This document shows positions 3,927 to 26,046 of a stretch of 64,000 bases of DNA, piece by piece. This DNA is from a virus (Duplodnaviria; Heunggongvirae; Uroviricota; Caudoviricetes). The position numbers and the translations under genes were made by a program. The stretch covers positions 6,939 to 70,938 of the IMG/VR virus record IMGVR_UViG_2700989400_000004; one strand, written 5' to 3'. The notes under the pieces are model-generated. The model was not told the DNA's origin. It did no database searches and was given only the letters and a program-made list of their open reading frames with translations. The stretch's first letter is position 1; every line of letters begins with the position of its first letter.

Positions 3927-4115
3927 TTAGTGAACTGCCTCGCGGCTGTCCTTCCATGCCAGAACTTCGGATAAAGACCAGCCAACGGAACGACCACCGA
4001 GTTTACGCCGTGATGGGAATTGTCCGGCTTTTTCCAGGCGGTAGCGGCATGAACGGCTCAGGCCTGTAAGTTGCTGACATTCTTTTTCACGTATAAAGCG
4101 ATCTGTGCTTAACAC
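3927..4115 (-). CDS. alpA: AlpA-family phage transcriptional regulator
   Basis: 62 aa, GTG start with AGGGGGA SD; motif LTGLSRSCRYRLEKAGQFPSRRKLGGRSVGWSLSEVLAW matches AlpA/Vis HTH family; immediately downstream of integrase. Confidence 0.7.
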   Translation of the reverse strand: MLSTDRFIREKECQQLTGLSRSCRYRLEKAGQFPSRRKLGGRSVGWSLSEVLAWKDSREAVH

Positions 4116-5972: not shown

Positions 5973-6066
5973 ACCGGCGCAGAGGAGACAATGCCGGATT
6001 TAAGACGCGGATGCACTGCTGTGTGTACTGTAGAGTCTGGCGGATGTCGACAGACTCTATTTTTTT
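5973..6066 (+). ncRNA. mcaS: small regulatory RNA McaS (IsrA)
   Basis: ~94-nt unit convergent with abgR as in E. coli K-12; GGA-containing 5' region (AGAGGAGACAAUG); intrinsic terminator stem AGAGTCTG/CAGACTCT (6033-6058) plus T7 run; -10-like TATAAC at 5961-5966. Confidence 0.65.
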
Positions 6067-6074
6067 ATGCAGTT

Positions 6075-6983
6075 TTAACTTTGCAGATAGCCGCATTCTC
6101 GCCGGAATTGCGTGATTAATGACGCGGTCAGTGGTGTCTGGCGACTATCACGCCGCTGAATCAAATAATAGGCCGCTTTCGGTAAAATTTCGCTAACCGG
6201 CAACATCACCAGCCCCTGTCCGTGCAAGGGATCGCAGCCCATTTCTTCAGGCAGTATGCTGAGAAAATCGCTTTTTGCCACCAGACTGATACAGGCTGAG
6301 AACGTCTCGCAGACTACACCGACCTGTGGCGTTTGCGCCTGATCGTCAAGCAATTCACTCAACTGTTTGTAGTAGCTGCCGTGTGGCGTCGGCATTGTCC
6401 AGCTGTAATCCAGTAACTGTTTGATCGAACGGGCACCAATGGCGGGGTGTCCCGGGCGGCAAAAGATCGCGAATTGCTTTTCCAGTAATTTCTCAAAAGT
6501 AAATTCGTGGTCGTACGGTCCCTGATAATAGGTATTGATGGTGAAATCCAATTCTCCCTGACGCAATTCATTAATCATCGACACCAGTTGCCCTTCCATA
6601 ATGCGTACTTTTACCTGCGGATGCTGCTGATGAAAACGAGATATGACAGCTGGCATCAGACTGCGGGAAATACTGGCCCCCATGCCGATATTAATCTGCC
6701 CTGCCAGTTGCCCTTGTCGTTGGCGAATATCCTCTTGGGCTGCGCGCAGTTCTTCAAGAATAAGACTGGCGTGCTGATAAAAACTTTCACCGGCATCAGT
6801 TAACGTCACGCCTTTACTACGGCGAAAAAAGAGTTGCGCCGCTAATCCTTCTTCCAGCTCCTGAATAGATTTACTCAGTGCCGGTTGCGACATATTCAAC
6901 ATTCGGCTCGCTCCGCGAATGCTGCCCTGACGAGCCACTTCAACAAAAGCACGAATTTGATGAATTTTTACCTGAAAAGCCAT
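6075..6983 (-). CDS. abgR: LysR-family transcriptional regulator AbgR
   Basis: 302-aa ORF with N-terminal LysR HTH (…IRGASRMLNMSQPALSKSIQELE…) and substrate-binding domain; divergent from the abgA operon. Confidence 0.9.
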   Translation of the reverse strand: MAFQVKIHQIRAFVEVARQGSIRGASRMLNMSQPALSKSIQELEEGLAAQLFFRRSKGVTLTDAGESFYQHASLILEELRAAQEDIRQRQGQLAGQINIGMGASISRSLMPAVISRFHQQHPQVKVRIMEGQLVSMINELRQGELDFTINTYYQGPYDHEFTFEKLLEKQFAIFCRPGHPAIGARSIKQLLDYSWTMPTPHGSYYKQLSELLDDQAQTPQVGVVCETFSACISLVAKSDFLSILPEEMGCDPLHGQGLVMLPVSEILPKAAYYLIQRRDSRQTPLTASLITQFRRECGYLQS

Positions 6984-13840: not shown

Positions 13841-16800
13841 TTATGCTGTAGTTGATGCGCTAAATGATCCTGTTCCTCTTGATACTAGCATTGTCGGAGA
13901 ATACAAAGCCATACAATATGAGTAGCCTTCTGATGCTGATGTTTGTGGGCAATATATTTCCCCGGTAATCCTTGATGTTGTTAAACCAGAAAAAGCGCAT
14001 TGCACTGTTAATGTGCATCCACCATAAGGTACGTAGTATTGAATTGTTTTACTTTGACCTCCGCAACTAAACGTTACGTTATAAGTTGATCTATATTCAC
14101 CAGATGTCAATGTAATCGTTGCCATAAGCATAACTGATTTCGTCAATGCACTGGTTGTGCTGTCGTTATATGTGATGGTTGCTTTATAACTTCCGTTATA
14201 CCCAAGTACTCGATCTGGACCAACACCCATGTTAGCAACGTCACCAACAAATGATGTGGCTTCAACTACTCCCTTAAATTTACCGTCAGTTGCGTTAATA
14301 GTACCATTAAACACCCCAGAATTAGCGTATACCGTGCCGCGTACTGTTACGTTATTAAATTCAGCGTTACCATTCTTATTAATCATCCACCCGGCGGAAC
14401 CGGAAACATAATTGGATGATTGGATTTGCTGCGCAATTTTTGCGGTAGTAATCGATGCGTCTTTAATAAACGCTTCGCGCACATACATTGCACCATTCGT
14501 AACATAGAAAGGTGTCGTATATGTGCCGTTTGCCGCCGTCATTAACACAAAGCGGTCAACAAGGAAAATGCACTGCGATTGTGTGCTTGTGCCGCTGCCA
14601 GTCAGGCCAAGCGAGATACCGGAAAAATATTTCATTCCGTTACTGTCTGCGGCGATCTTAACGCTCCACGTTGCCGACATGTCTGATTCAAGGCTGGTGA
14701 TAGCGGTTTTGTTTTCCTCAATTGATACTGATTGCCCCTCAATTGACGCCGTGATACTTTCGATCTGTGTGGCGGTCGATTCCTGGTAAGACGTAAACGC
14801 TTCGCTCCACTCCGTAATCGACGCCTCGTTTGCTTCCAGTGATGCGCTAATCTGCGCAAACTGTGTAGCGTTGGCTTGTTCATGTGTGGCTAATGCCTGA
14901 TCCACGCTGCTGATCGCTGATGAGATATCGCCGTCTACTTTCGCCTCAAGGTTATTGATGGATTCAGCCGTGGATGATTCCAGATCGGTGATTGTCTGGT
15001 TGATCTCCGTTAAGCTGGCCTGGATATCCTCGTTTACCTGGCTTTCCAGTTTTTCGATTGATTGGCTTGTTGAGCTTTCAAGCGTCGCGATGGTCTGCTG
15101 TAGTTCGGTTACGTTAGCGCTGATTTCGTCATTAACCTTGCTTTCAAGCGTGGTAAGCGCCTGCGCGGTCGCTTCCTTCTCTGTAGCAATAACTGAATCA
15201 ATGCGCTCGATTTCCGCCTTCGTTTCTGCTTTCTGGTTTTTATATTGCGCCGTTAACGTGGTGCGGGTGCTGGTGTTAGCCAATGAGTTATTCATAAGCG
15301 CAATGGCTGCGTTTTGCAGGCTGGCGCGGGTCTGCATTAGCTCGTTTTCTTGCTCCGTCAATTCTACGCTGATTTCGTTAATCTGGCTTTCATGCTCCCC
15401 GATCCCGTCCTCGTTGTTTTTTACACGTTCTTCCAGATCGGCGGTTGACTCCTTCAGGTCGGTAACAGCCTGGTCAATGTCTACCGTGGTTTGTTTCAGT
15501 TCTTCCACGTCACCCATTAAACCGCCTGTTACTTCGCCTATGGAGTCCTTGATCATGTTCTGGAATTGCTCGCCTTCCATAACTTCATTCAGCACGGCGT
15601 CTGTAATTTCCTCGAAGTTTTCGGAAGGTTTACCGCTGGCTTCGATAAAGTCAGATACACCGAAAGCGTTTTTTGTGCGCACGTAAACGTAATACGTATG
15701 GCCCGTTGCCATACCGCCGAAGGTCCATTGATACCCGCGCCCGGTGAATTGCGCTGATGTTGTTACCTGGCTGAAGTCAGTGATCTGGTTTTCTCCGGCA
15801 TAATAGAATTCGTAACTGGTATCGGTCGTTAGCGTGGTGCTGCTGATCGGGTAAACAGTCGCCTGGAAAACACCTGGCACCCAATTAACGCCGACCGGGG
15901 CCGCTGGCGCACCAATCACCAGATCTACAATACTTTCCGCCCCCTTCATGCCAGTGTCATTACGCCCGCGAATACCCAACGTGTAATTCCCTGCGTCGAG
16001 GCCATAAAATTCATAACGGTAATTCGTGGTTTCATAACTTGCCACCACGCGCCCGTCTGCGTTATATACGCGGATTTCGAAGGTCAGGGGATGCGTTGTT
16101 GTCTGCGTCTCCCAGGTGGCGCGGCATTGAACCGTTTCTGACCCAACGTTTACCACTTTCAAATTTTCGATGTTCGGGACACGGAAGTGATTTAGCGTGT
16201 CGCTACTGATTTCGAAGATTGCGCCTTCATCGACTACCGCCTGTTTGTTCGGGTCGTGCTGCGCGGCTTCGATGGTGTATACGCTGTTATTTTCGGTTTC
16301 GGCTACGCTGGTGATCCGGCATAAAACGGGTTTTGCTGCTTCAGTGGATACAGCGAAAACGGTCCCGTTACGAATCCACGCCGGGGCCGCCGCTAAGGTG
16401 ATCTCATTTCCATTCACCCCGGTGATCTGGTGTTTTTTAAATTTGCCATCACTATCGAGCAAGCTGATGGTGTCGCCTGCGGTGATGTATTCTGAATCAA
16501 CCTTATCGACCGTTATCACCTTGCCATTGTTCGCCACGATACGACCGCCTAAACGAGCGCCCGCGCGGTTATTGTCGAGGATCTCGATGATATCCCCTGG
16601 TGTAAAGTGAATCGCGTCACGGGCCATTTTAAACGTGAATTTTGACGGCTCGCGTTTTGCTGTTTCTATCAGCCACTTGCCCGCGCGGTACGCTTGCCCG
16701 CGTGATGTGCACCCGAACGCCTCTAACGTGGTTTCGTTGTAACCATCACGGGCGATCAGTTCATCGTCTGCTACATACTCTTTTGATTGCTCCCAGCCGT

Positions 16801-18022
16801 TCTTCGGGTCAGTCCAAGATACGATCACGGCGTTATAACATTCCGCACGGGCGATACTTGAACGAGTAAACGCGCCATCAACGACATTTGCATTTGTAAT
16901 AGTGGCGATCGGATCTTGTGGCGCATCGATCATCACCGTAAGGCGTTGTCCGTCCCATAGCGCCATACCTCTGAACATCCCGGCGATATTGTCCAGTAAG
17001 TCGCGGGCGCTCATCTGCTCTGTAATGTACGCATTAAGCGTAACGCGCGGCTCAAGGCCGCCGTAACCATCATTGACTAACTGGTCGCAGTATTGGGAAA
17101 GCGTATATAATGCGCCGTCATCAACATCAATATAGCCAGCATGACGGGCAAGGCCAAAACGCTCGTTTTTAACCAGATAACGGAAGATCCAAGCGGGGTT
17201 ATTAGTGTACGCCTGCTTGAAGCCGCCAAGCCATAATCCTGAGTAAGTGCGCGTTTCCGGGTTGTAGTTATCAGGGATATCAACAATCAGCCCGCGGAGG
17301 TGATAAGTGCGGGTAGGCGTGTCAGCGTACTGATCATGGTCGATCACTGCGCCAGCTATAGCCGTGTGAGGGTAAGATAGGTTATCGTCGATAATTTCAC
17401 TGTAACTATTCCATCGTGTATTGTTGTTCAATAAATCGCCAGTGCTATCGGGTGTAATACGACGAACCCGAATATCGAACGGGCTTTCACTAGGTGCGCA
17501 AATAATATGAGACTCAAGATATTCACCGCTAATTTTACCGGTAATAGAAACGGCTTTAACAGGCGTCCATATCGTTGATGATGATGGTTTTACGTCAATC
17601 ATCATCATAACGGTTGAATTGTATTGATTCCCTTCATCATCGCTTTCTACAAGAACATCCACCCCAACATTCAACCTGACTCGCGTCACGTTGGGATCGG
17701 ATACAGTGCGAACTAACGGGGTGTCGTGTGTTACCTCGGTGTTAACCATAACGGTCGATTCAATAGCATTAAAACCATTGATCGGCGATTGGTTAAGTGT
17801 ACCAGGACGCCAGGCGACACTAACGCCGGGGATACTGACATGACCCGCAGTATCCGTAATAGGTGTATCATTAAGCATCACGCAGTTCAACGGCGCGGCA
17901 GCATTAACCGGACCGTAGATCGGGCCTTCACTCAATATATCTAATACGCGATAAAACTGTTTATGATACAAATTGTCATTAAGTAAATCTGGTGTGCTAC
18001 CGCCACCACCACCACCGCCCAT
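13841..18022 (-). CDS. J: host-specificity / central tail fibre protein (lambda J homolog)
   Basis: 1393-aa ORF; conserved J-type stretches (…LSEGPIYGPV…, …AFGCTSRGQAYRAGKWLIET…). Confidence 0.85.
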   Translation of the reverse strand: MGGGGGGGSTPDLLNDNLYHKQFYRVLDILSEGPIYGPVNAAAPLNCVMLNDTPITDTAGHVSIPGVSVAWRPGTLNQSPINGFNAIESTVMVNTEVTHDTPLVRTVSDPNVTRVRLNVGVDVLVESDDEGNQYNSTVMMMIDVKPSSSTIWTPVKAVSITGKISGEYLESHIICAPSESPFDIRVRRITPDSTGDLLNNNTRWNSYSEIIDDNLSYPHTAIAGAVIDHDQYADTPTRTYHLRGLIVDIPDNYNPETRTYSGLWLGGFKQAYTNNPAWIFRYLVKNERFGLARHAGYIDVDDGALYTLSQYCDQLVNDGYGGLEPRVTLNAYITEQMSARDLLDNIAGMFRGMALWDGQRLTVMIDAPQDPIATITNANVVDGAFTRSSIARAECYNAVIVSWTDPKNGWEQSKEYVADDELIARDGYNETTLEAFGCTSRGQAYRAGKWLIETAKREPSKFTFKMARDAIHFTPGDIIEILDNNRAGARLGGRIVANNGKVITVDKVDSEYITAGDTISLLDSDGKFKKHQITGVNGNEITLAAAPAWIRNGTVFAVSTEAAKPVLCRITSVAETENNSVYTIEAAQHDPNKQAVVDEGAIFEISSDTLNHFRVPNIENLKVVNVGSETVQCRATWETQTTTHPLTFEIRVYNADGRVVASYETTNYRYEFYGLDAGNYTLGIRGRNDTGMKGAESIVDLVIGAPAAPVGVNWVPGVFQATVYPISSTTLTTDTSYEFYYAGENQITDFSQVTTSAQFTGRGYQWTFGGMATGHTYYVYVRTKNAFGVSDFIEASGKPSENFEEITDAVLNEVMEGEQFQNMIKDSIGEVTGGLMGDVEELKQTTVDIDQAVTDLKESTADLEERVKNNEDGIGEHESQINEISVELTEQENELMQTRASLQNAAIALMNNSLANTSTRTTLTAQYKNQKAETKAEIERIDSVIATEKEATAQALTTLESKVNDEISANVTELQQTIATLESSTSQSIEKLESQVNEDIQASLTEINQTITDLESSTAESINNLEAKVDGDISSAISSVDQALATHEQANATQFAQISASLEANEASITEWSEAFTSYQESTATQIESITASIEGQSVSIEENKTAITSLESDMSATWSVKIAADSNGMKYFSGISLGLTGSGTSTQSQCIFLVDRFVLMTAANGTYTTPFYVTNGAMYVREAFIKDASITTAKIAQQIQSSNYVSGSAGWMINKNGNAEFNNVTVRGTVYANSGVFNGTINATDGKFKGVVEATSFVGDVANMGVGPDRVLGYNGSYKATITYNDSTTSALTKSVMLMATITLTSGEYRSTYNVTFSCGGQSKTIQYYVPYGGCTLTVQCAFSGLTTSRITGEIYCPQTSASEGYSYCMALYSPTMLVSRGTGSFSASTTA

Positions 18023-19242: not shown

Positions 19243-19947
19243 TCACCCTACCTTGCTGGAACCAGGGAAACAGGCGATCGGTAGCGCTGCTGGACGCGGG
19301 AAACGTAAACGACAACCGCTTAGGCGGTGACTGCATCTATCTAAATTCAGATCATTGGTTGGTACATCCTTATCAGTAGCCACCGGACCGCCAGAATACA
19401 TACATCCATCGCCCCTATATTGCCATTGACAAACATCCGCCAGGATAGTCCGGCCTGGGATAATCGCTTTATCTGCGTCAATCGGCGTTGATAACTCATA
19501 CTGAACCTGATCTGCTGTTTCTTCTGCCATTGCTTCAATGACGTAAAAAGATACAGCCTCAATAGATGGATCTGCGTCTGGATTGCCGTTAGGGAAGTTA
19601 ACGGCGTCCAGGTATTTAACCTCCACCTGGCGGCGCGTAACCTTCATTCCTCTAAGGTCGTTGAAATCGTTATTCATCCCCGTAATGAGTCCGCCGATAT
19701 TGGCTACAGCCATTTGAGGACGTGAATAAACGCCCTCGTTTTTCATTTCGAAGCCAGTAGCCTCGATCGGGTAGCTGTTGTAAGTTAATCCCTTCCAGAT
19801 AACCGGGCCGTAATAGCCATTCGCGCCGGAATGGAAGCGGATAACCTCGCCACCCAGGGGCGACAAGTCCAGTTCGAACAAGTCAATCACCGCGCCCACA
19901 CCAGCGTCCACGGAATCAATAATCATCTCTGTAGGTATATTGCGCAT
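19243..19947 (-). CDS. L: minor tail protein (lambda L-like)
   Basis: C-terminal Cys motif (…CQWQYRGDGC…CSHRLSGC…) as in lambda L; ATG at 19947 with GAAGGTGAG SD. Confidence 0.7.
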   Translation of the reverse strand: MRNIPTEMIIDSVDAGVGAVIDLFELDLSPLGGEVIRFHSGANGYYGPVIWKGLTYNSYPIEATGFEMKNEGVYSRPQMAVANIGGLITGMNNDFNDLRGMKVTRRQVEVKYLDAVNFPNGNPDADPSIEAVSFYVIEAMAEETADQVQYELSTPIDADKAIIPGRTILADVCQWQYRGDGCMYSGGPVATDKDVPTNDLNLDRCSHRLSGCRLRFPRPAALPIACFPGSSKVG

Positions 19948-20076
19948 TTTCTCACCTTCTGATTTTGTGATCTGCGTCACGCTAAATCATACCAAAATGG
20001 ATTGATCGCGGTTTATACAATATGTATATTTTACTCAAACGGAAGCACAGTTAACAAAATGGCGCGGAGGTGTGAG

Positions 20077-20232
20077 ATGGCTGATAAGGTGTGGAGGTTG
20101 AAGGTATTCCTGTCAGGTGGCAGGGAAATGACTGTAGCTCTGTATAAAGACGAAGGCGAGGCACTGACTGACGCGCTATTACTCACTGAAGACGAACGCG
20201 TTTTGGGGTACAGAATCGAACCTGTCAAATGA
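20077..20232 (+). CDS. hypothetical protein (moron, 51 aa)
   Basis: Opposite strand to tail operon; GGAGGTG SD 6 nt before ATG. Confidence 0.4.
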   Translation: MADKVWRLKVFLSGGREMTVALYKDEGEALTDALLLTEDERVLGYRIEPVK

Positions 20233-20244
20233 GAGGTTAACGAA

Positions 20245-20592
20245 ATGCAAAAATATAGTCTTGATGTGTGGTTAAGTGGTTGCAAGGAGTGTTTCGGATT
20301 ATTTGATAGCGAAGAGGCAGCTTTGGAAGAAGGAAGGATTCTTGAATGTAGTTTAGGCCATCCAGTGAAATATGCCGCTAATCCGGTGCAGATAATTGAT
20401 GAGGTGGAAAACATGAACCCGAAAGATATTAACTTTAACGTCAATGTTGAATTTGCTGATTCTATGGATCAGTCTTGCCCTGGTGAAATACACGTAAAAG
20501 GTTTCCCGGCAGACGACATGAAAGCGAAACATGAATACGAAAAAGCGGCGAAAGATTTCTGCATCGACAATCTGAGCGCGTTTAATAAATAA
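20245..20592 (+). CDS. hypothetical protein (moron, 115 aa)
   Basis: GAGAGG SD; protein-like translation. Confidence 0.45.
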   Translation: MQKYSLDVWLSGCKECFGLFDSEEAALEEGRILECSLGHPVKYAANPVQIIDEVENMNPKDINFNVNVEFADSMDQSCPGEIHVKGFPADDMKAKHEYEKAAKDFCIDNLSAFNK

Positions 20593-20601
20593 GGCGGCAA
20601 T

Positions 20602-20850
20602 ATGGCGCGGCGTAATCACGGGGATTATGTGTACACGTTGAAACAAGCCGCCCGCCTTATTGGCTATCATGAGCATGAATTTATTGATTTGCTGATTGAG
20701 CGCGGGATTCTGTACCAGGTTTGTTTAACGTTGTACCCAAAAGCTAAATACCTACAGGAAAAATTATTCATCATCATGACGGATGAAAACCAAGTTAATC
20801 ATTCATTCGTCACTGACAGGGGCGTTAATTATCTGCGTGATAACTTATAG
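20602..20850 (+). CDS. hypothetical protein, possible HTH (moron, 82 aa)
   Basis: AAGG SD; helix-turn-helix-like stretch YTLKQAARLIGYHEHEFIDLLIERGIL. Confidence 0.45.
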   Translation: MARRNHGDYVYTLKQAARLIGYHEHEFIDLLIERGILYQVCLTLYPKAKYLQEKLFIIMTDENQVNHSFVTDRGVNYLRDNL

Positions 20851-20859
20851 GCGGTAATT

Positions 20860-20931
20860 ATGGATGAAGTAATCGAAAATGTTTTGGTAGTGGCTGGCGC
20901 GATTGCCATCGTTTATGCCTTTCTGAATTAA
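20860..20931 (+). CDS. micro-protein, single hydrophobic helix (23 aa)
   Basis: MDEVIENVLVVAGAIAIVYAFLN; AGGCGG SD. Confidence 0.3.
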   Translation: MDEVIENVLVVAGAIAIVYAFLN

Positions 20932-20942
20932 TGGGGTGAATC

Positions 20943-21080
20943 ATGAAAATTGAAGTTTTAGCACTAATAGCAATGGGCTTGATAGTATTTGGCGTGCACG
21001 CTGCGGATTGGGACTGGTGCGCAATAGCTGAGAACATGGCGCACGCTCACCCAATAGGCTTGATGCACATGAACTTCTAA
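20943..21080 (+). CDS. small exported or membrane-anchored His-rich peptide (45 aa)
   Basis: MKIEVLALIAMGLIVFGVHA / ADWDWCAIAENMAHAHPIGLMHMNF: signal-peptide-like N-terminus with VHA-A site; GGGGTGA SD. Confidence 0.4.
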   Translation: MKIEVLALIAMGLIVFGVHAADWDWCAIAENMAHAHPIGLMHMNF

Positions 21081-21084
21081 CACG

Positions 21085-21110
21085 AAAAACCCCGCTTCGG
21101 CGGGGTGTTA
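21085..21110. terminator. intrinsic terminator (UUCG tetraloop hairpin)
   Basis: CCCCGC-TTCG-GCGGGG; T-run on minus side, A-run on plus side. Confidence 0.45.
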
Positions 21111-21124
21111 TAGGTAGGTGAGAC

Positions 21125-21301
21125 ATGAAAGAAGGTGTGACTTATCAGCATGTGTATACATTTGAAATTTACCGCATATGTGATGGTTATGTTGAAGAGT
21201 ATAAAATCTTCCCCCGTGGATACTGGAAGAGAGTTAAGATTTCTGTAAGGTTATTAAAGAAAATGTTTAAAAGAGGATTAATTCAAGAAATTGATTTTTA
21301 G
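21125..21301 (+). CDS. hypothetical protein (moron, 58 aa)
   Basis: AGGTGAGA SD; basic C-terminal half. Confidence 0.4.
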   Translation: MKEGVTYQHVYTFEIYRICDGYVEEYKIFPRGYWKRVKISVRLLKKMFKRGLIQEIDF

Positions 21302-21308
21302 TAAACAA

Positions 21309-21337
21309 TAAGGGGGTTACCCCCCTTATTGTTTTAT
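21309..21337 (+). terminator. intrinsic terminator ending plus-strand moron island
   Basis: AGGGGG-TTA-CCCCC hairpin followed by ttattgttttatttg. Confidence 0.45.
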
Positions 21338-21617
21338 TTGTCGTGACGACTTTCTATTTCATAGATGATCGCCATTCCTACCGCGATAATAAATACCATT
21401 ACCAAGCCATCAACCAGCATATTAAACGCCCTCAATCAAGAATAAATATTCCTTCCCTTCGTAAGATCTGCATCCCACATACCCGTCGCCGTAGTCATGC
21501 AGATACCAGGTGTTCCCCTTATCACTCACCACTGTGAGATTATCGATCTGGTAGTCTTCGAATAGCGTAAATGATTCATCGCCAGTCTTAACGCACATCC
21601 CGTACATATTGCCCCCT

Positions 21618-21971
21618 TTAATTCATCACTTGCTCAAACATCGCGGTTAGCGTGAATACGGGGCCATCCTTCGTCATGTTCCATTTTCGGCAGACAAAAA
21701 GCCTTTGCACTCCATCCATCGACGGCGACCAGTAAAACGCCTCGACCGCGCCGCGCGCCCGTAAAAACGCCTCCGCCTGGATCGCTGGATTGCCAGCGTC
21801 ACCGCATCCGGCGCTCGACCCCTTAAAAACCACGCTGTAATCGTCGAGCAAGGGATTAATCCCTTTAACCTGGCGTTGCTCATAGCCATCACCCAGCTTG
21901 ACGACCGACACGTTCGGCTCCCTGGTTACGCTGTAGCTACGCTGCGGCGTCCAGGTAAACACTTCCGGCAT
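21618..21971 (-). CDS. M: minor tail protein (lambda M-like)
   Basis: 117 aa; conserved …LGDGYEQRQVKGIN… and C-terminal …FEQVMN as in M-family proteins. Confidence 0.7.
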   Translation of the reverse strand: MPEVFTWTPQRSYSVTREPNVSVVKLGDGYEQRQVKGINPLLDDYSVVFKGSSAGCGDAGNPAIQAEAFLRARGAVEAFYWSPSMDGVQRLFVCRKWNMTKDGPVFTLTAMFEQVMN

Positions 21972-22030: not shown

Positions 22031-22140
22031 GAACTTCATCACAAGAATTATAACCAGTTTACAAAATGGCTTCACACAGGACGCAACAAGATGTATACAG
22101 AAAGCAAGAAGAAAAGCAGTACCAACAAAGGAGGCCCAAG

Positions 22141-22308
22141 ATGAAACGCAACGATAAACACTACGCGGTCGTAATGCTTAATAACGCATTTGAACAAGTA
22201 GAAGTGGCGATCGTTAAAGGCTTTGATGATGCATTCAAAATGGGCCAGTTCTACATGAACGTGAAGGAAAACGAATACCGGGATTTCTACCTGAAAGCGG
22301 TCAACTAA
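22141..22308 (+). CDS. hypothetical protein (moron, 55 aa)
   Basis: Strong AGGAGG SD 8 nt before ATG at 22141. Confidence 0.4.
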   Translation: MKRNDKHYAVVMLNNAFEQVEVAIVKGFDDAFKMGQFYMNVKENEYRDFYLKAVN

Positions 22309-22325
22309 GGATGATGGGGTGAGCT

Positions 22326-22580
22326 ATGAAACTGGTAGCGATTGATAAAAATTTGAAGGTACAGAAAAACGCGCAGGACCGGATCATCAAAAAGGGTAAG
22401 GCTTTATTAAATGCTTTCCTGAAAAAAGAAGCTCACCCCAAAAAGTTACGCGATGGTTACGGTTATAAATTTGATATCAACCCCGATTGGCGGTTATTCA
22501 GCGATGATTTGAAGGTGTGGTTAATTATCGAGCATCATTATTATAATGTTAAATGTGGGGTTAAGGGGGCGCATAAATGA
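22326..22580 (+). CDS. hypothetical protein (moron, 84 aa)
   Basis: GGGGTGAG SD; lysine-rich protein-like ORF. Confidence 0.45.
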   Translation: MKLVAIDKNLKVQKNAQDRIIKKGKALLNAFLKKEAHPKKLRDGYGYKFDINPDWRLFSDDLKVWLIIEHHYYNVKCGVKGAHK

Positions 22581-22814
22581 GATGGCGTGAATTACATAGC
22601 TACGGCATCCGGTTTTCCCTGGTTGTCCTGAAAGATTGGTTTAATCGCCAGGTGGCAAACGATGCGTTAATCCCGTTTGCTGATAACAAGCCTTATAAGC
22701 GCGATGGGGTGAGATATGGAAGATGATAAATTTACATGGCGGGAGATCTGGAATATTTGGCAGGTAATTTTCGGAAGGGGATATATTGCGCGGAATGGTC
22801 GATTGTAGAGGTAA

Positions 22815-22997
22815 ATGATGATTATTCATGAAACGGAAGAATGTCGGCGGATTAATCTTAGTATTGAGTATGACGAAAGATTATGGCTTGAAAGCGACTG
22901 CGAAATAATCGTAATAGACAAAAAGCAAGCCGCCGAACTGATAAGCGCATTACAGCTTTATGTAAACAACGAATTTAAAAATGACGAAGTTGAATAA
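22815..22997 (+). CDS. hypothetical acidic protein (moron, 60 aa)
   Basis: GAGGT SD; followed by terminator. Confidence 0.4.
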   Translation: MMIIHETEECRRINLSIEYDERLWLESDCEIIVIDKKQAAELISALQLYVNNEFKNDEVE

Positions 22998-23003
22998 AGA
23001 AAA

Positions 23004-23040
23004 CCCCCAGCTTTCGCCGGGGGTATTATTTTATTTTTTG
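23004..23040. terminator. bidirectional terminator between moron island and tape-measure gene
   Basis: CCCCC…GGGGG hairpin followed by tattattttattttttg. Confidence 0.4.
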
Positions 23041-25916
23041 CGCGGTTGTAACATGCCACCGGGGCGTGTGCTTTGTTCCCTAACTACCCCCATAGCCACG
23101 CGTTTCATTGTGTCTTCAAGTCTGCGGCTATCCTCATCACTAAAACCGTTTGTCGTTTGAACGGTAATACTAACAGGCATGTTGATGCTGCCACCACCGC
23201 CCAAGTCGCGGTTAGGAGTAATACGCCCACCTTCACCGGGGATTATGTACTGTTTCCCGCCAGTAGTGGTAAACAGCTCCGGTTTACCGTGCTCACCAAC
23301 CCTATAAAGATTGCCGCCATTAACCGCACCGCCGTTGTAGCGTCCGCCACCGAAAATGGACGTCGCCAGCGACATGATTGCAGACAATGCCGCCGCACCA
23401 GCCGCCGCCCAGCTACCGCCAGTTGCCGCCGCCGTCGCCGCCGCCGCCGGGGCCGCCGCCGCTGCAATCTGACCTTGCGCCGCTACCGCGCCCGCCGTGG
23501 TGCTGGCTTGCGTTGCCTTGCTCTGACTTTCCATCATGATTTGGTCGGCTATCCAGTTTGCTGCAATCTGAGATAAGCGGTTGCCTACCGTGCCGAGAAT
23601 GTTGCTACCCAGGTTAGCAAACATCTCGCTTAGGGATTGTGTGCCGTTGAGCAATCCGGTAATGGCGTTACCCATGCCGCTTGTTAAGCCGTTGACGCAA
23701 TCGCCGATAAGCGCGTTAGTGTCGCTTTGCGCTTGCCATTGCTCCCACTTAAGCGCGGTTAGCTGTTGTTCATAGGCTAACTCTTCCATTTTCAATTGGG
23801 CCTGTGTAGCGCCTAAATCAGTGAGCATTTGCTTTCTGATAGTCCATTCATTTTGCAACTGCTGAATAGGGTCTACCTGGCCTTTTTTCTTGTCTTCATC
23901 AGAAACAAGGCTATCCCATTTGGCTTGTTGTTCTTCCTCGCGTAGCTGTTTCAGCGTGTCAGACAACGCCTTGCTTGCGCCCTCCTTCGCGGCTGTATAT
24001 TCCAGATAAGTGATCTTACCTTGCTTGTACGCTGCATCCAGGGCTTTTTGTTCTTCGCCAAGTTTACGCATAGCGGCGGCGTCTTTGTTGTACTGGTCGG
24101 AAATATTTAAGCCTTCATCGCCTAACTTATCCCAATCGGATTTTTTCGACTTCTTGCCCTTCCCGTCCTTGCCGCCACTGCCACCGCTGCCGCTTCCCGT
24201 TCCGGTTGGTTTCGGCGGAACATATGTACCATTAATACGGGCTTGTGCTTCGTCGGCTTTCTCGTTGGCTTTTTCAAGGTTTTTATTAGCCGTGTCTAAC
24301 TTACCTTCTAAGGTCTTCTGAGTATCCCCGGCGACACCTAGCGCCGCTTTTGCAGGTCCGGCAATTTCTGGATCATCACTCTGCGCTAATTTTTCCAGGA
24401 TGGCGCGGTTTTTCACCATGCGATCCAGTTCGGCTTTTGCCTTCCGGGCGTTTTCCTCAATGTCTTTGAGTTGTTTGTTTATCTCAATCAAAGCCGCTTC
24501 CAGTTCATTTTTGCTCATATCGTCGAACGACATAGCCAATTCGTCGATTTTGGCTTTTGCGTTGGCGGCTTTCTCTTCAGTGCTTTCCATGTTAAGGATA
24601 AGCGTACCCAGGCAGATCGCAGCGGTCATGATTGCGCCAGCGGGGCCACCAAGTAACCCTAACGCGCCATTGAAGATCCGCATCCCGATGCTGGCGGCTT
24701 TTGCTGCTGTACCGGACGCAACGATTGCCGCGTTAGCCGTGGTGGCAGCGGTGCGCATAGTCGTGTAAGCGGCGGCGGTTTGCGCTTGCGCTACACGGAG
24801 GCGAGCAAGCGCGGCGGTGTGGGCGTTTGTACCCTGCGCGGCCTGGTAGTGGGCGCGGGCCTCCCCTTCTGCCTGCAATGCTGCTTTAAGTCCGGCGGCG
24901 GCTGTGTGTAGCTGCTGGCGTGCCAGGTTGGCTTCTGCTGCTGCCTGCTGCGCGGCGGCCTGTGCTGCTTTCTGGTTGGCGGCTGCCAGCCGGATGTTTT
25001 CCGCCGTTGCCTGGATGATGCCACCTAACGCCCGTCCACCCATTACAGCACCAAGTGCAATGGCGGAGGCGGTTACAACGTCCAGGTTTTCAGATAGGGT
25101 GATCAGCGTGCTGTTAAACGCGTTAATCCCGCTACGGATCACAGAGTTTTCACCAAAATACTTAGTCGCGTTGTTGGTGGCAACTGTGAAGGCATCCGAC
25201 ATAGTGATCGCCATATTGTCGAACTCTTTATCTACTTCGGACTTCATCGCCCGGACCGCTGCGATAATTATATCTTTCGTGATCTTGCCGTCCTTCGCCA
25301 TTTCACGCAATGCGGTACTGGATACGCCCATTGATTTTGCGATACCTTCCGCCAGGCGTGGCGCGTTCTCCATTACGCTATTGAATTCATCGCCGCGCAA
25401 TTCACCAGATCCCAAGGCCTGGGCCAATTGTCTGATCCCGCCTTCCATTTCGCTTGCGGATGCGCCGGACACCTGAAAGGATTTGTTAATCGTTTCCACG
25501 ATGCTTGCCAGGTCACGCCCGCTTAGTCCGCTGTCACGCGTTGCGCGTTCCAATTTGGAGTAAAGCGCGGCGGTCGCATCCAGTGGTGACATTGATTTCT
25601 GTGCGGCCTTAAAAACCCGGTTTGTAACTTCTTCCAGTGATTCATTTGACCGGACGGAGTTAACCAGCTTGTTGTTTACTTCTTGCCAGGCGTTGGCGTA
25701 CTCAATGATCTTTCTTGTCACCAATGCCGCACCAACCGCGCGGGCAACCGTGGATAGGCTCGCCAGGGATTTACTTGCCTTATCAGCGGCGGTGTCTACC
25801 CGTTGCAGGTCTTTTTCCATCGCTCCGGTTGCCTTGTCTACTTCTTTCTGTGCAACCAGTAGCGATCCGGTTTTGGCGTCGATCGTGTATTCAATCGCGC
25901 CTACATTTTTAGCCAT
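23031..25916 (-). CDS. tail tape measure protein
   Basis: ~960-aa coiled-coil Ala/Gln-rich ORF with Gly-rich segment; ATG at 25916 (MAKNVGAIEY…) with CGGAGA SD. Confidence 0.8.
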   Translation of the reverse strand: MAKNVGAIEYTIDAKTGSLLVAQKEVDKATGAMEKDLQRVDTAADKASKSLASLSTVARAVGAALVTRKIIEYANAWQEVNNKLVNSVRSNESLEEVTNRVFKAAQKSMSPLDATAALYSKLERATRDSGLSGRDLASIVETINKSFQVSGASASEMEGGIRQLAQALGSGELRGDEFNSVMENAPRLAEGIAKSMGVSSTALREMAKDGKITKDIIIAAVRAMKSEVDKEFDNMAITMSDAFTVATNNATKYFGENSVIRSGINAFNSTLITLSENLDVVTASAIALGAVMGGRALGGIIQATAENIRLAAANQKAAQAAAQQAAAEANLARQQLHTAAAGLKAALQAEGEARAHYQAAQGTNAHTAALARLRVAQAQTAAAYTTMRTAATTANAAIVASGTAAKAASIGMRIFNGALGLLGGPAGAIMTAAICLGTLILNMESTEEKAANAKAKIDELAMSFDDMSKNELEAALIEINKQLKDIEENARKAKAELDRMVKNRAILEKLAQSDDPEIAGPAKAALGVAGDTQKTLEGKLDTANKNLEKANEKADEAQARINGTYVPPKPTGTGSGSGGSGGKDGKGKKSKKSDWDKLGDEGLNISDQYNKDAAAMRKLGEEQKALDAAYKQGKITYLEYTAAKEGASKALSDTLKQLREEEQQAKWDSLVSDEDKKKGQVDPIQQLQNEWTIRKQMLTDLGATQAQLKMEELAYEQQLTALKWEQWQAQSDTNALIGDCVNGLTSGMGNAITGLLNGTQSLSEMFANLGSNILGTVGNRLSQIAANWIADQIMMESQSKATQASTTAGAVAAQGQIAAAAAPAAAATAAATGGSWAAAGAAALSAIMSLATSIFGGGRYNGGAVNGGNLYRVGEHGKPELFTTTGGKQYIIPGEGGRITPNRDLGGGGSINMPVSITVQTTNGFSDEDSRRLEDTMKRVAMGVVREQSTRPGGMLQPRKK

Positions 25917-26046
25917 AGCGTTGATCTCCGTTTTTGTGATCTGTGTAACTATTTTATACAAAATGGCTTTGCTTTAACGACTCCATTTTGTATAAAGAAG
26001 CCATAGGGAATAGGTAGTTAAACAAACAAGTTAAGTGGGGTGGGTT

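Follow-up and report, generated by a model that had tools for sequence, protein, structure and literature searches.

The peptide gene and its locus

The DNA analyzed here is a stretch of 64,000 nucleotides (nt) from a virus record of the Caudoviricetes (IMG/VR record IMGVR_UViG_2700989400_000004, positions 6,939 to 70,938), which is called the window in the following. It contains a prophage of the mEpimmI group, in whose tail-gene region a short open reading frame (ORF) for a peptide of 45 amino acids (aa), MKIEVLALIAMGLIVFGVHAADWDWCAIAENMAHAHPIGLMHMNF by translation of the window, is found on the + strand (Table 1). This ORF, termed p45, and its product are the subject of this work. An initial annotation had described the product as an exported metal-binding or signalling/bacteriocin-like micropeptide. 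The features on which this description was built are all present, namely the length of 45 aa, the hydrophobic, signal-like N-terminus and the V-H-A/A motif as well as, in the translation of this allele, Trp23 and Trp25, Cys26 and the HAHPIGLMHM cluster.

The peptide gene is the last of five cistrons (p51-p115-p82-mini23-p45), which are spaced 9-12 nt apart and form a + strand cassette located between tail genes L and M and antisense to the tail genes. A Shine-Dalgarno-like sequence precedes its ATG in all four upstream contexts. The stem of the hairpin behind the stop codon is likewise kept 3' of the gene in every context, with varying loops; in this window, the hairpin has a good T-run on the minus strand only, the + strand T-run being degraded.

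For an analysis of selection, 35 loci with DNA were collected, which contain 28 unique coding sequences (CDS). Variable sites at codon positions 1/2/3 number 19/14/37 and are thus in excess at the third position. At a pS of about 0.45, the ratio of nonsynonymous to synonymous polymorphism (pN/pS) is lowest in codons 2-21, with 0.14, and reaches 0.34 and 0.35 in codons 22-33 and 34-45, respectively. The family shows two length changes, +6 nt and -18 nt, neither of which shifts the reading frame. Thus, a real protein-coding gene is indicated by four features: the distribution of variable sites over the codon positions, a low pN/pS combined with a high pS, length changes that keep the frame, and the kept Shine-Dalgarno sequence. 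Alternatively, the minus strand might carry the real gene, a 61-aa and a 59-aa ORF being candidates (Table 1), or a conserved RNA or terminator leader might contain the ORF by chance. Such a reading could draw on the very small size of the ORF, on its missing annotation in mEp021 and in most E. coli genomes with the 38-aa form of the peptide, and on the lineage with an ATA start described below. We consider it hardly credible, since all four features named above suit the + strand frame and the gene region has no match in Rfam. In other genomes, the gene is annotated as hypothetical (some RefSeq genomes and mEp010).

Table 1. Features of the window and of related contigs. Positions refer to the window unless a contig is named.
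Feature	Position	Strand	Remarks
45-aa micropeptide gene (p45)	20943..21080	+	ATG at 20943; stop codon ends at 21080
Hydrophobic targeting/anchor segment of the peptide	residues 1-21		ends in GVHA
Tail of the peptide	residues 22-45		acidic, Trp/Met-rich
Shine-Dalgarno sequence GGGGTGA of p45	20933..20939	+	good site, 3 nt 5' of ATG
GC-rich hairpin ACCCCGC-TTCG-GCGGGGT	21089..21106	.	terminator-like; begins 8 nt past the p45 stop
Promoter candidate TTGATC-17 nt-TATATT	20002..20030	+	sigma-70-like, 9/12 match; in the 130-nt divergent gap between gene L and the cassette
p51	20077..20232	+	first cassette gene; 51 aa; phrog_29559
p115	20245..20592	+	115 aa; phrog_38567
p82	20602..20850	+	small protein with KilAC domain (antirepressor C-terminal-like; PF03374, 27.6 bits); phrog_5689
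mini23, MDEVIENVLVVAGAIAIVYAFLN	20860..20931	+	23-codon mini-ORF; begins 9 nt past the p82 stop, ends 11 nt before the p45 start
p58	21125..21301	+	extra 58-aa ORF; only in this window and IMG/VR contig L007; no family match
Strong hairpin terminator	21303..21334	+	14-bp stem, then TATTTG
61-aa ORF opposite p45	20941..21126	-	minus-strand candidate
59-aa ORF opposite p45	20858..21037	-	minus-strand candidate
Tail gene J	13841..18022	-	
Tail genes I and K		-	
Tail gene L	19243..19980	-	
Tail gene M	21618..21971	-	
Tape-measure gene	23031..25961	-	
61-aa ORF near gene M	21422..21607	-	
33-aa hydrophobic ORF, MRAFNMLVDGLVMVFIIAVGMAIIYEIESRHDK	21334..21435	-	downstream of the 61-aa ORF 21422..21607 and gene M
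Second opposite-strand cassette	22066..22997	+	between gene M and the tape-measure gene
84-aa ORF	22326..22580		in the second cassette
McaS/IsrA small RNA gene	5973..6068	+	Rfam RF00115, 118 bits; chromosomal flank left of the prophage
Peptide unit of L040 and L037-L039			TTGACA-17-TAAGAT, 50-aa ORF, peptide gene, terminator
50-aa ORF of L040	4838..4990 of L040		
Peptide unit of L036			TTGACA-17-TAAGAT, 50-aa ORF, peptide gene, lipoprotein gene, terminator
50-aa ORF of L036	2517..2669 of L036		
Lipoprotein gene of L036	2829..3098 of L036		lipobox LAGC; phrog_12984; between peptide gene and terminator
Peptide unit of L005			promoter, peptide gene, terminator, nothing else

Distribution of the peptide family

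Homologues of the peptide were found in 38 clusters by a single-sequence search of 5.8 billion proteins and in 79 clusters by a profile search. An exhaustive phmmer search of 1.84 billion cluster representatives returned 5 clusters only, all of them inside the peptide family. No relative was detected in a scan of GTDB with one genome per species, and the family is therefore rare and absent from these representative genomes. The gene occurs in 29 IMG/VR contigs, in 6 cultured mEp phages and in 22 of 5426 complete E. coli genomes, which corresponds to 22 of the about 35 E. coli genomes carrying the cassette. Its position is fixed in 34 mEp-type loci. Scans of the 45-aa peptide against Pfam-A (E<=0.1), PHROGs, NCBIfam and PADLOC gave no match, and a PDB profile search yielded nothing at E<=10.

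Presence of the gene is patchy. Phage MagusPhagus has p51, p115 and p82 and lacks the peptide gene together with its hairpin terminator, and the gene is also carried by an unrelated phage backbone, as described below. Furthermore, in a lineage of six IMG/VR contigs (L027-L030, L033 and L034) ATA replaces the ATG of the 38-aa form at position 4001, and the remainder of the 38-aa frame is intact; the ATA start reflects either recent inactivation or non-canonical initiation. Patchy presence, a terminator and a deviating base composition belong, next to a promoter of their own and expression from the repressed prophage, to the definition of phage morons (PMC3594210). The hairpin lies directly 3' of the stop codon of the peptide gene, and the GC content of the cassette is 0.37-0.44 as compared to 0.47-0.60 for tail genes K, L and M and the tape-measure gene, with a GC skew opposite in sign to that of the tail genes. 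Judged by its substitution pattern and distribution, the ORF is shown to be a real protein-coding accessory gene of the moron type in coliphages. The peptide is a new, uncharacterized family of a known sort, the phage moron or early small envelope proteins.

The prophage and its + strand cassette

The best DNA matches of the window are phages mEp013, mEp515, mEp010, mEp021 and mEp554 as well as prophages in 35 complete E. coli genomes. The mEpimmI phages are mEp021-like, Nus-dependent, non-lambdoid temperate coliphages (PMC11893012); the genome paper on this group does not discuss the cassette holding the peptide gene. The flank left of the prophage contains the McaS/IsrA small RNA gene and is therefore assigned to an Escherichia chromosome. 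tRNA genes were found nowhere in the 64-kb window.

Both hexamers of the promoter candidate upstream of p51 are kept in related prophages. The 51-55-aa RefSeq homologues of p51 are named 'transporter', which looks like an annotation artefact; p51 has no hydrophobic segment and no match in Pfam or NCBIfam. For mini23, pN/pS is 0.10 at a pS of 0.39 (12 loci, 8 unique sequences), and this frame, which begins as MNRVDEV... in some loci, probably encodes a second real membrane micropeptide, as far as its substitution pattern can tell. It is not found in mEp021 or mEp010, is unannotated in RefSeq relatives and lies below the usual ORF cut-offs. Behind the peptide gene, here as in L007, the insertion of p58 together with its strong terminator replaced the T-run seen in relatives, and with this the + strand T-run of the hairpin was lost. 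p58 probably extends the cassette transcript beyond this weakened + strand terminator, and, to judge from its predicted structure, the strong hairpin terminator behind p58 is likely where the + strand cassette really ends in this window.

Next to this end of the cassette lies a 33-aa hydrophobic ORF on the minus strand, which is 85-91% conserved in four IMG/VR contigs (L002, L006, L007 and L026) and is annotated in phage MagusPhagus. A second opposite-strand cassette is located between gene M and the tape-measure gene. A close RefSeq homologue of its 84-aa ORF is named 'ParE family toxin-like protein', a name without support from Pfam, NCBIfam or PADLOC. The window contains neither a paralogue of the 45-aa peptide nor a copy of the lipoprotein of contig L036, which is described in the next section.

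A second genomic context in large phages

A 47-aa subfamily of the peptide comprises about 30 clusters and is found in contigs of 84-141 kb. There, the genes around it encode, among others, a tail protein, an Srd/HNH-like protein and a DUF2201 metallopeptidase, which shares 62% identity with its counterpart in rV5-like myoviruses. From this gene content, we infer that the contigs are uncultured relatives of the rV5-like, presumably virulent, phages. No match to the rV5-like locus was found when its DNA was searched against cultured phages and plasmids. With the 47-aa consensus, a tblastn search against cultured phages yielded one weak match in an mEp phage only, because the low-complexity filter masks the helix.

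In the rV5-like contigs, the peptide gene is part of a series of short units that each run from a near-consensus sigma-70 promoter to a hairpin terminator (Table 1). In L005, L036 and L040 it is located 60-250 nt behind TTGACA/TTGACT-17-TAATAT/TAAGAT. The 50-aa ORF preceding it in several units is homologous to the C-terminal half of p115 (BLASTP E=3e-13) and matches positions 62-115 of phrog_38567, the same PHROG as p115; in p115, this half shows the pattern FADSMDQxCPGEI...FCIDNLxxF[ND]K. An obligatory pair of p115 or the 50-aa ORF with the peptide had also been considered. It was downgraded, since the peptide gene stands alone in L005 and MagusPhagus has p115 without it. By homology and gene order, p115 or the 50-aa ORF and the peptide are a loose gene pair common to two unrelated phage backbones.

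The lipoprotein encoded in L036 shares 85-91% identity with one found in the mEp phages and in MagusPhagus, and the L036 peptide is nearer to the mEp type than to the peptides of its rV5-like neighbours. Accessory genes have therefore apparently been swapped between the two phage groups, and the identity of the lipoprotein points to a recent exchange between temperate and large phages. To judge from these arrangements, the peptide gene with its terminator behaves as a mobile mini-module able to work without fixed partners.

Conserved residues and length forms

Residues that are invariant or nearly so in all subfamilies are E4, V5, L6, A7, L8, G12, L13, V15, G17, V18, H19 and A20 in the N-terminal part and D22, D24, W25, A29 and E30 in the tail. 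H36, P37, M41, M43 and F45 show this (near) invariance only in the 45- and 47-aa forms, and the C-terminal LMxM is kept even in the 38-aa form. The 47-aa form carries the +6 nt insertion and starts with MKMR..., and in the 38-aa form the 18 nt coding for HAHPxG are deleted exactly and the stop codon comes slightly earlier.

Several of the residues on which the initial annotation had relied vary within the family. Cys26 is present in 4 of 27 unique CDS and is replaced by A, K or S at the other loci and by G, F, N or H in the wider protein clusters; His34 and His42 are variable, and W23 is exchanged for L or V elsewhere. The tail of the 47-aa subfamily contains one His (H36), and that of the 38-aa subfamily contains none past the VHA motif. 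The His-rich, Cys-containing character is a feature of this allele and not of the family, and the exchange of Cys26, the variation of His34 and His42 and the deletion of HAHPxG in the 38-aa form leave the proposed metal binding through a His-rich/Cys site without support.

Predicted membrane targeting

The uncharged run V5-A21 is 17 residues long and contains a strictly apolar core of 14 residues (V5-V18). In a simple additive estimate on the Hessa scale, its insertion energy amounts to about -0.2 kcal/mol and lies between those estimated in the same way for the OmpA and PhoA leaders (+1.8 and +5.1) and for MgrB and AcrZ (-2.2 and -2.9). All 27 unique CDS have G at position 17, and 25 each have V at position 18 and A at position 20; the 47-aa subfamily keeps the same G17/V18/A20 pattern, so that an apolar core is as a rule followed by small -3/-1 residues. 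This supports a conserved Sec-type targeting segment at the N-terminus, as predicted from its composition. With a net charge of -3 to -4 the tail is acidic, and basic residues occur only at the N-terminus. Therefore, the N-terminus should be cytoplasmic and the tail periplasmic, whether or not the peptide is cleaved. The G-V-H-A sequence hardly varies and agrees with the -3/-1 rule, so that a periplasmic location of the last 18-25 residues is very probable. The proposal of an exported peptide is borne out to this extent; a secreted signal or bacteriocin is unsupported. The N-region is neutral overall in the 45- and 38-aa forms (MKIE, net charge 0) and carries +1 in the 47-aa form (MKMRLE), with the Glu being invariant. 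AlphaFold2 predicts a helix for residues 3-22 with a predicted local distance difference test score (pLDDT) above 90 and, with falling confidence, helices 25-35 and 37-44, a model that fits leader and anchor alike.

Within mEp-type prophages, the hydrophobic segment shows a pN/pS of 0.12-0.14 versus 0.31-0.35 for the tail and is thus 2-3 times tighter. This constraint pattern is not the one expected of a disposable leader, which on these grounds does not appear supported. Since E4, G12, G17 and H19 are invariant and non-generic and the segment is constrained at least as strongly as the tail, the substitution data modestly favour an uncleaved anchor over cleavage past VHA.

Proposed role

Because Pfam, PHROGs, NCBIfam, PADLOC, PDB and the literature gave no match, the function was read from the anatomy of the system: the gene product is envelope-targeted, the gene is antisense to and apart from the late tail genes, its presence is patchy, and it once shares an operon with a lipoprotein. 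Strong host-type promoters, as read from their consensus match, drive the gene in the large, presumably lytic, phages. By analogy, the most likely role would be superinfection exclusion or a different way of blocking a host protein of the inner membrane. Exclusion would be in keeping with a gene that the prophage expresses independently of its late genes and that the large, presumably lytic, phages express early. In this model, Sec/YidC would insert the peptide so that its N-terminus stays cytoplasmic and residues 5-21 (VLALIAMGLIVFGVHAA) span the inner membrane, with the acidic Trp/Met-rich tail (DWDW...LMxM) facing the periplasm. Helix and tail would bind an envelope target and, in superinfection exclusion, genome injection by incoming phages would be blocked, a last step taken from analogy only. 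To the complete reading, a Sec/YidC-targeted N-in/C-out envelope micropeptide with an uncleaved anchor that most likely acts in superinfection exclusion, we give an even chance.

Several points weigh against it. The exclusion role is drawn from analogy and context only, neither the peptide nor its operon partners have a match among the PADLOC defence models, and a literature search for the peptide sequence found no paper containing it. From the ATA lineage and the absence of the gene in MagusPhagus it follows that the gene is dispensable. The promoter candidate of the cassette is a weak consensus match, and such matches in the region are not above the shuffled expectation. As to the anchor, N- and C-terminal constraint is equal between the two phage groups (0.30 vs 0.34), and the segment also suits a cleavable Sec signal peptide, with its 14-residue core, Gly at -4 and V-H-A; the leader of E. 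coli TolB likewise ends in VLHA. The tighter constraint of the leader relative to the mature part, once taken as decisive against cleavage, was downgraded, as the difference vanishes between the phage groups.

Second in probability comes a cleaved pre-peptide, which is possible but less probable than the anchored form. Signal peptidase I (SPase I) would remove the first 20 residues, a classical Sec signal peptide in this reading, by cutting past V-H-A and leave an acidic Trp/Met-rich peptide of 18-25 residues free in the periplasm, where it could act, e.g., on a periplasmic domain or an incoming tail tip. The 14-residue core lies in the range of signal peptides rather than that of anchors, for which 19 or more residues are typical, and the insertion energy is no more than about -0.2 kcal/mol; G17 (-4), V18 (-3) and A20 (-1) are nearly invariant, acidic residues right past the site favour export, and the N-region of the 47-aa forms (MKMR) is more basic. 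However, cleavage has no need of the invariant E4, G12 and H19 (-2), the N-region of the 45- and 38-aa forms has no net charge, and D, V or T occurs at -1 in rare alleles. Signal peptides usually evolve faster than mature regions, which is the reverse of the pattern within the mEp-type prophages.

Depolarization of the inner membrane by a small toxin, similar to type I toxins, holins or host-shutoff proteins, is unlikely. The size and the single hydrophobic helix resemble Hok, TisB and Ibs-type peptides, and the strong promoters in the large, presumably lytic, phages would be in line with such a function. Against it, the gene is located distally in an operon, has a good, exposed Shine-Dalgarno sequence and lacks a long structured 5' untranslated region, it lies outside the lysis cassette and is carried in the prophages of 22 complete E. 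coli genomes, and the acidic tail is unlike that of most pore-forming toxins. A consensus scan, itself a weak test, detected no antisense promoter-like site over 20943-21080.

Still less probable is periplasm-facing binding of Cu(I) or Ag(I) by H36-P-M-x-L-M-x-M or LMxM instead of the His cluster. Periplasmic proteins such as CusF and PcoC use Met/His-rich motifs to bind Cu(I), and H36, P37, M41 and M43 as well as LMxM show the conservation described above. On the other hand, the His cluster and Cys are not conserved, the 38-aa tail contains no His, one short motif could not provide a full coordination site without oligomerization, Met is also a common hydrophobic interface residue, and there are no copper or silver genes nearby.

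Finally, a secreted bacteriocin or microcin, or an arbitrium-like communication pre-peptide, for which only the size, the N-terminal export signal and the variable C-terminal part speak, is highly improbable: the leader ends in VHA and not in the GG/GA of a double-glycine leader, neither the cassette nor the rV5-like context has a gene for an ABC exporter, immunity or an AimR-like receptor (the neighbours are p51, p115, the KilAC-like gene and tail genes, or small early genes), a peptide exported by Sec in E. coli gets no further than the periplasm, and a lysis-lysogeny signal would be useless in the large, presumably lytic, phages that also carry the gene. The bacteriocin or signalling role suggested initially is thus not supported.

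Returning to the envelope effector, a more comprehensive picture can be put forward tentatively, although we hold it to be rather doubtful in its full extent: a family of 38-47-aa envelope effectors is swapped between mEpimmI siphophages and rV5-like relatives, sometimes with the Cys-containing 50-aa/p115 partner, and blocks the genome entry of competing phages or otherwise disables an inner-membrane host protein. Small hydrophobic ORFs of prophages are routinely missed, and here there is clean comparative evidence for a selected one. In addition, a mini-module of promoter, ORF and terminator moves between two unrelated coliphage lineages, one of them temperate. If the peptide blocks entry or disables a host function, it would be among the smallest superinfection-exclusion or host-takeover factors known; if it acts in phage exclusion or modulates an inner-membrane protein, it would provide a minimal, easily synthesized tool and one more prophage-encoded mechanism of envelope defence. 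If neither holds, it would be one further uncharacterized family of phage micropeptides.

Comparison with known systems

The N-terminal segment resembles Sec (SPase I) signal peptides in its length of 20-22 residues, the 14-residue core, Gly at -4 and Val/Ala at -3/-1. It differs from them in the invariant Glu, in an N-region without net positive charge in two of the three forms and in a residue-specific conservation beyond the needs of targeting. AimP, the arbitrium peptide of Bacillus phages, is similarly encoded by a phage ORF of about 40-45 aa with an N-terminal export signal. In contrast to AimP, the peptide gene has no adjacent AimR in either context, its product has no AimP-type C-terminal hexapeptide, and it occurs in a Gram-negative host and also in presumably lytic phages.

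Among bitopic micropeptides, DicB is encoded by a prophage and acts on ManYZ (PMC6832061). MgrB (47 aa), AcrZ, SgrT and DicB are similar in size to the peptide and have one N-terminal helix; MgrB also has a short periplasmic tail. The likely shared mode of action is binding of helix and tail to a larger membrane protein. There is no homology between these micropeptides and the peptide, whose segment is shorter and less hydrophobic than that of MgrB or AcrZ.

T4 Imm and Sp are small membrane proteins that this virulent phage expresses early from host-type promoters and that exclude superinfecting T-even phages. They parallel the 47-aa subfamily behind TTGACA-17-TAAGAT in the rV5-like contigs, are about twice as long as the peptide and show no sequence kinship with it.

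As to function, gp15 of HK97 comes closest: this small protein of the inner membrane is the product of a moron in the tail operon, is expressed from the prophage and blocks genome injection of superinfecting phages (PMC3594210). There is no sequence relationship between this YebO-like protein and the peptide, which has no match in Pfam (YebO included, E<=0.1) or in PHROGs, and the peptide family, in contrast to gp15, is also found in large contigs related to rV5-like phages. The gp15 gene forms a single-gene unit between chaperone and tape-measure genes, whereas the peptide gene is the last of five cistrons between L and M. Nevertheless, both proteins are small, have an N-terminal membrane helix, a predicted one in the peptide, and are distributed patchily among related phages, and the genes of both are insertions inside the tail-gene block of a temperate siphophage, with independent transcription in the case of gp15 and putatively so in that of the peptide.

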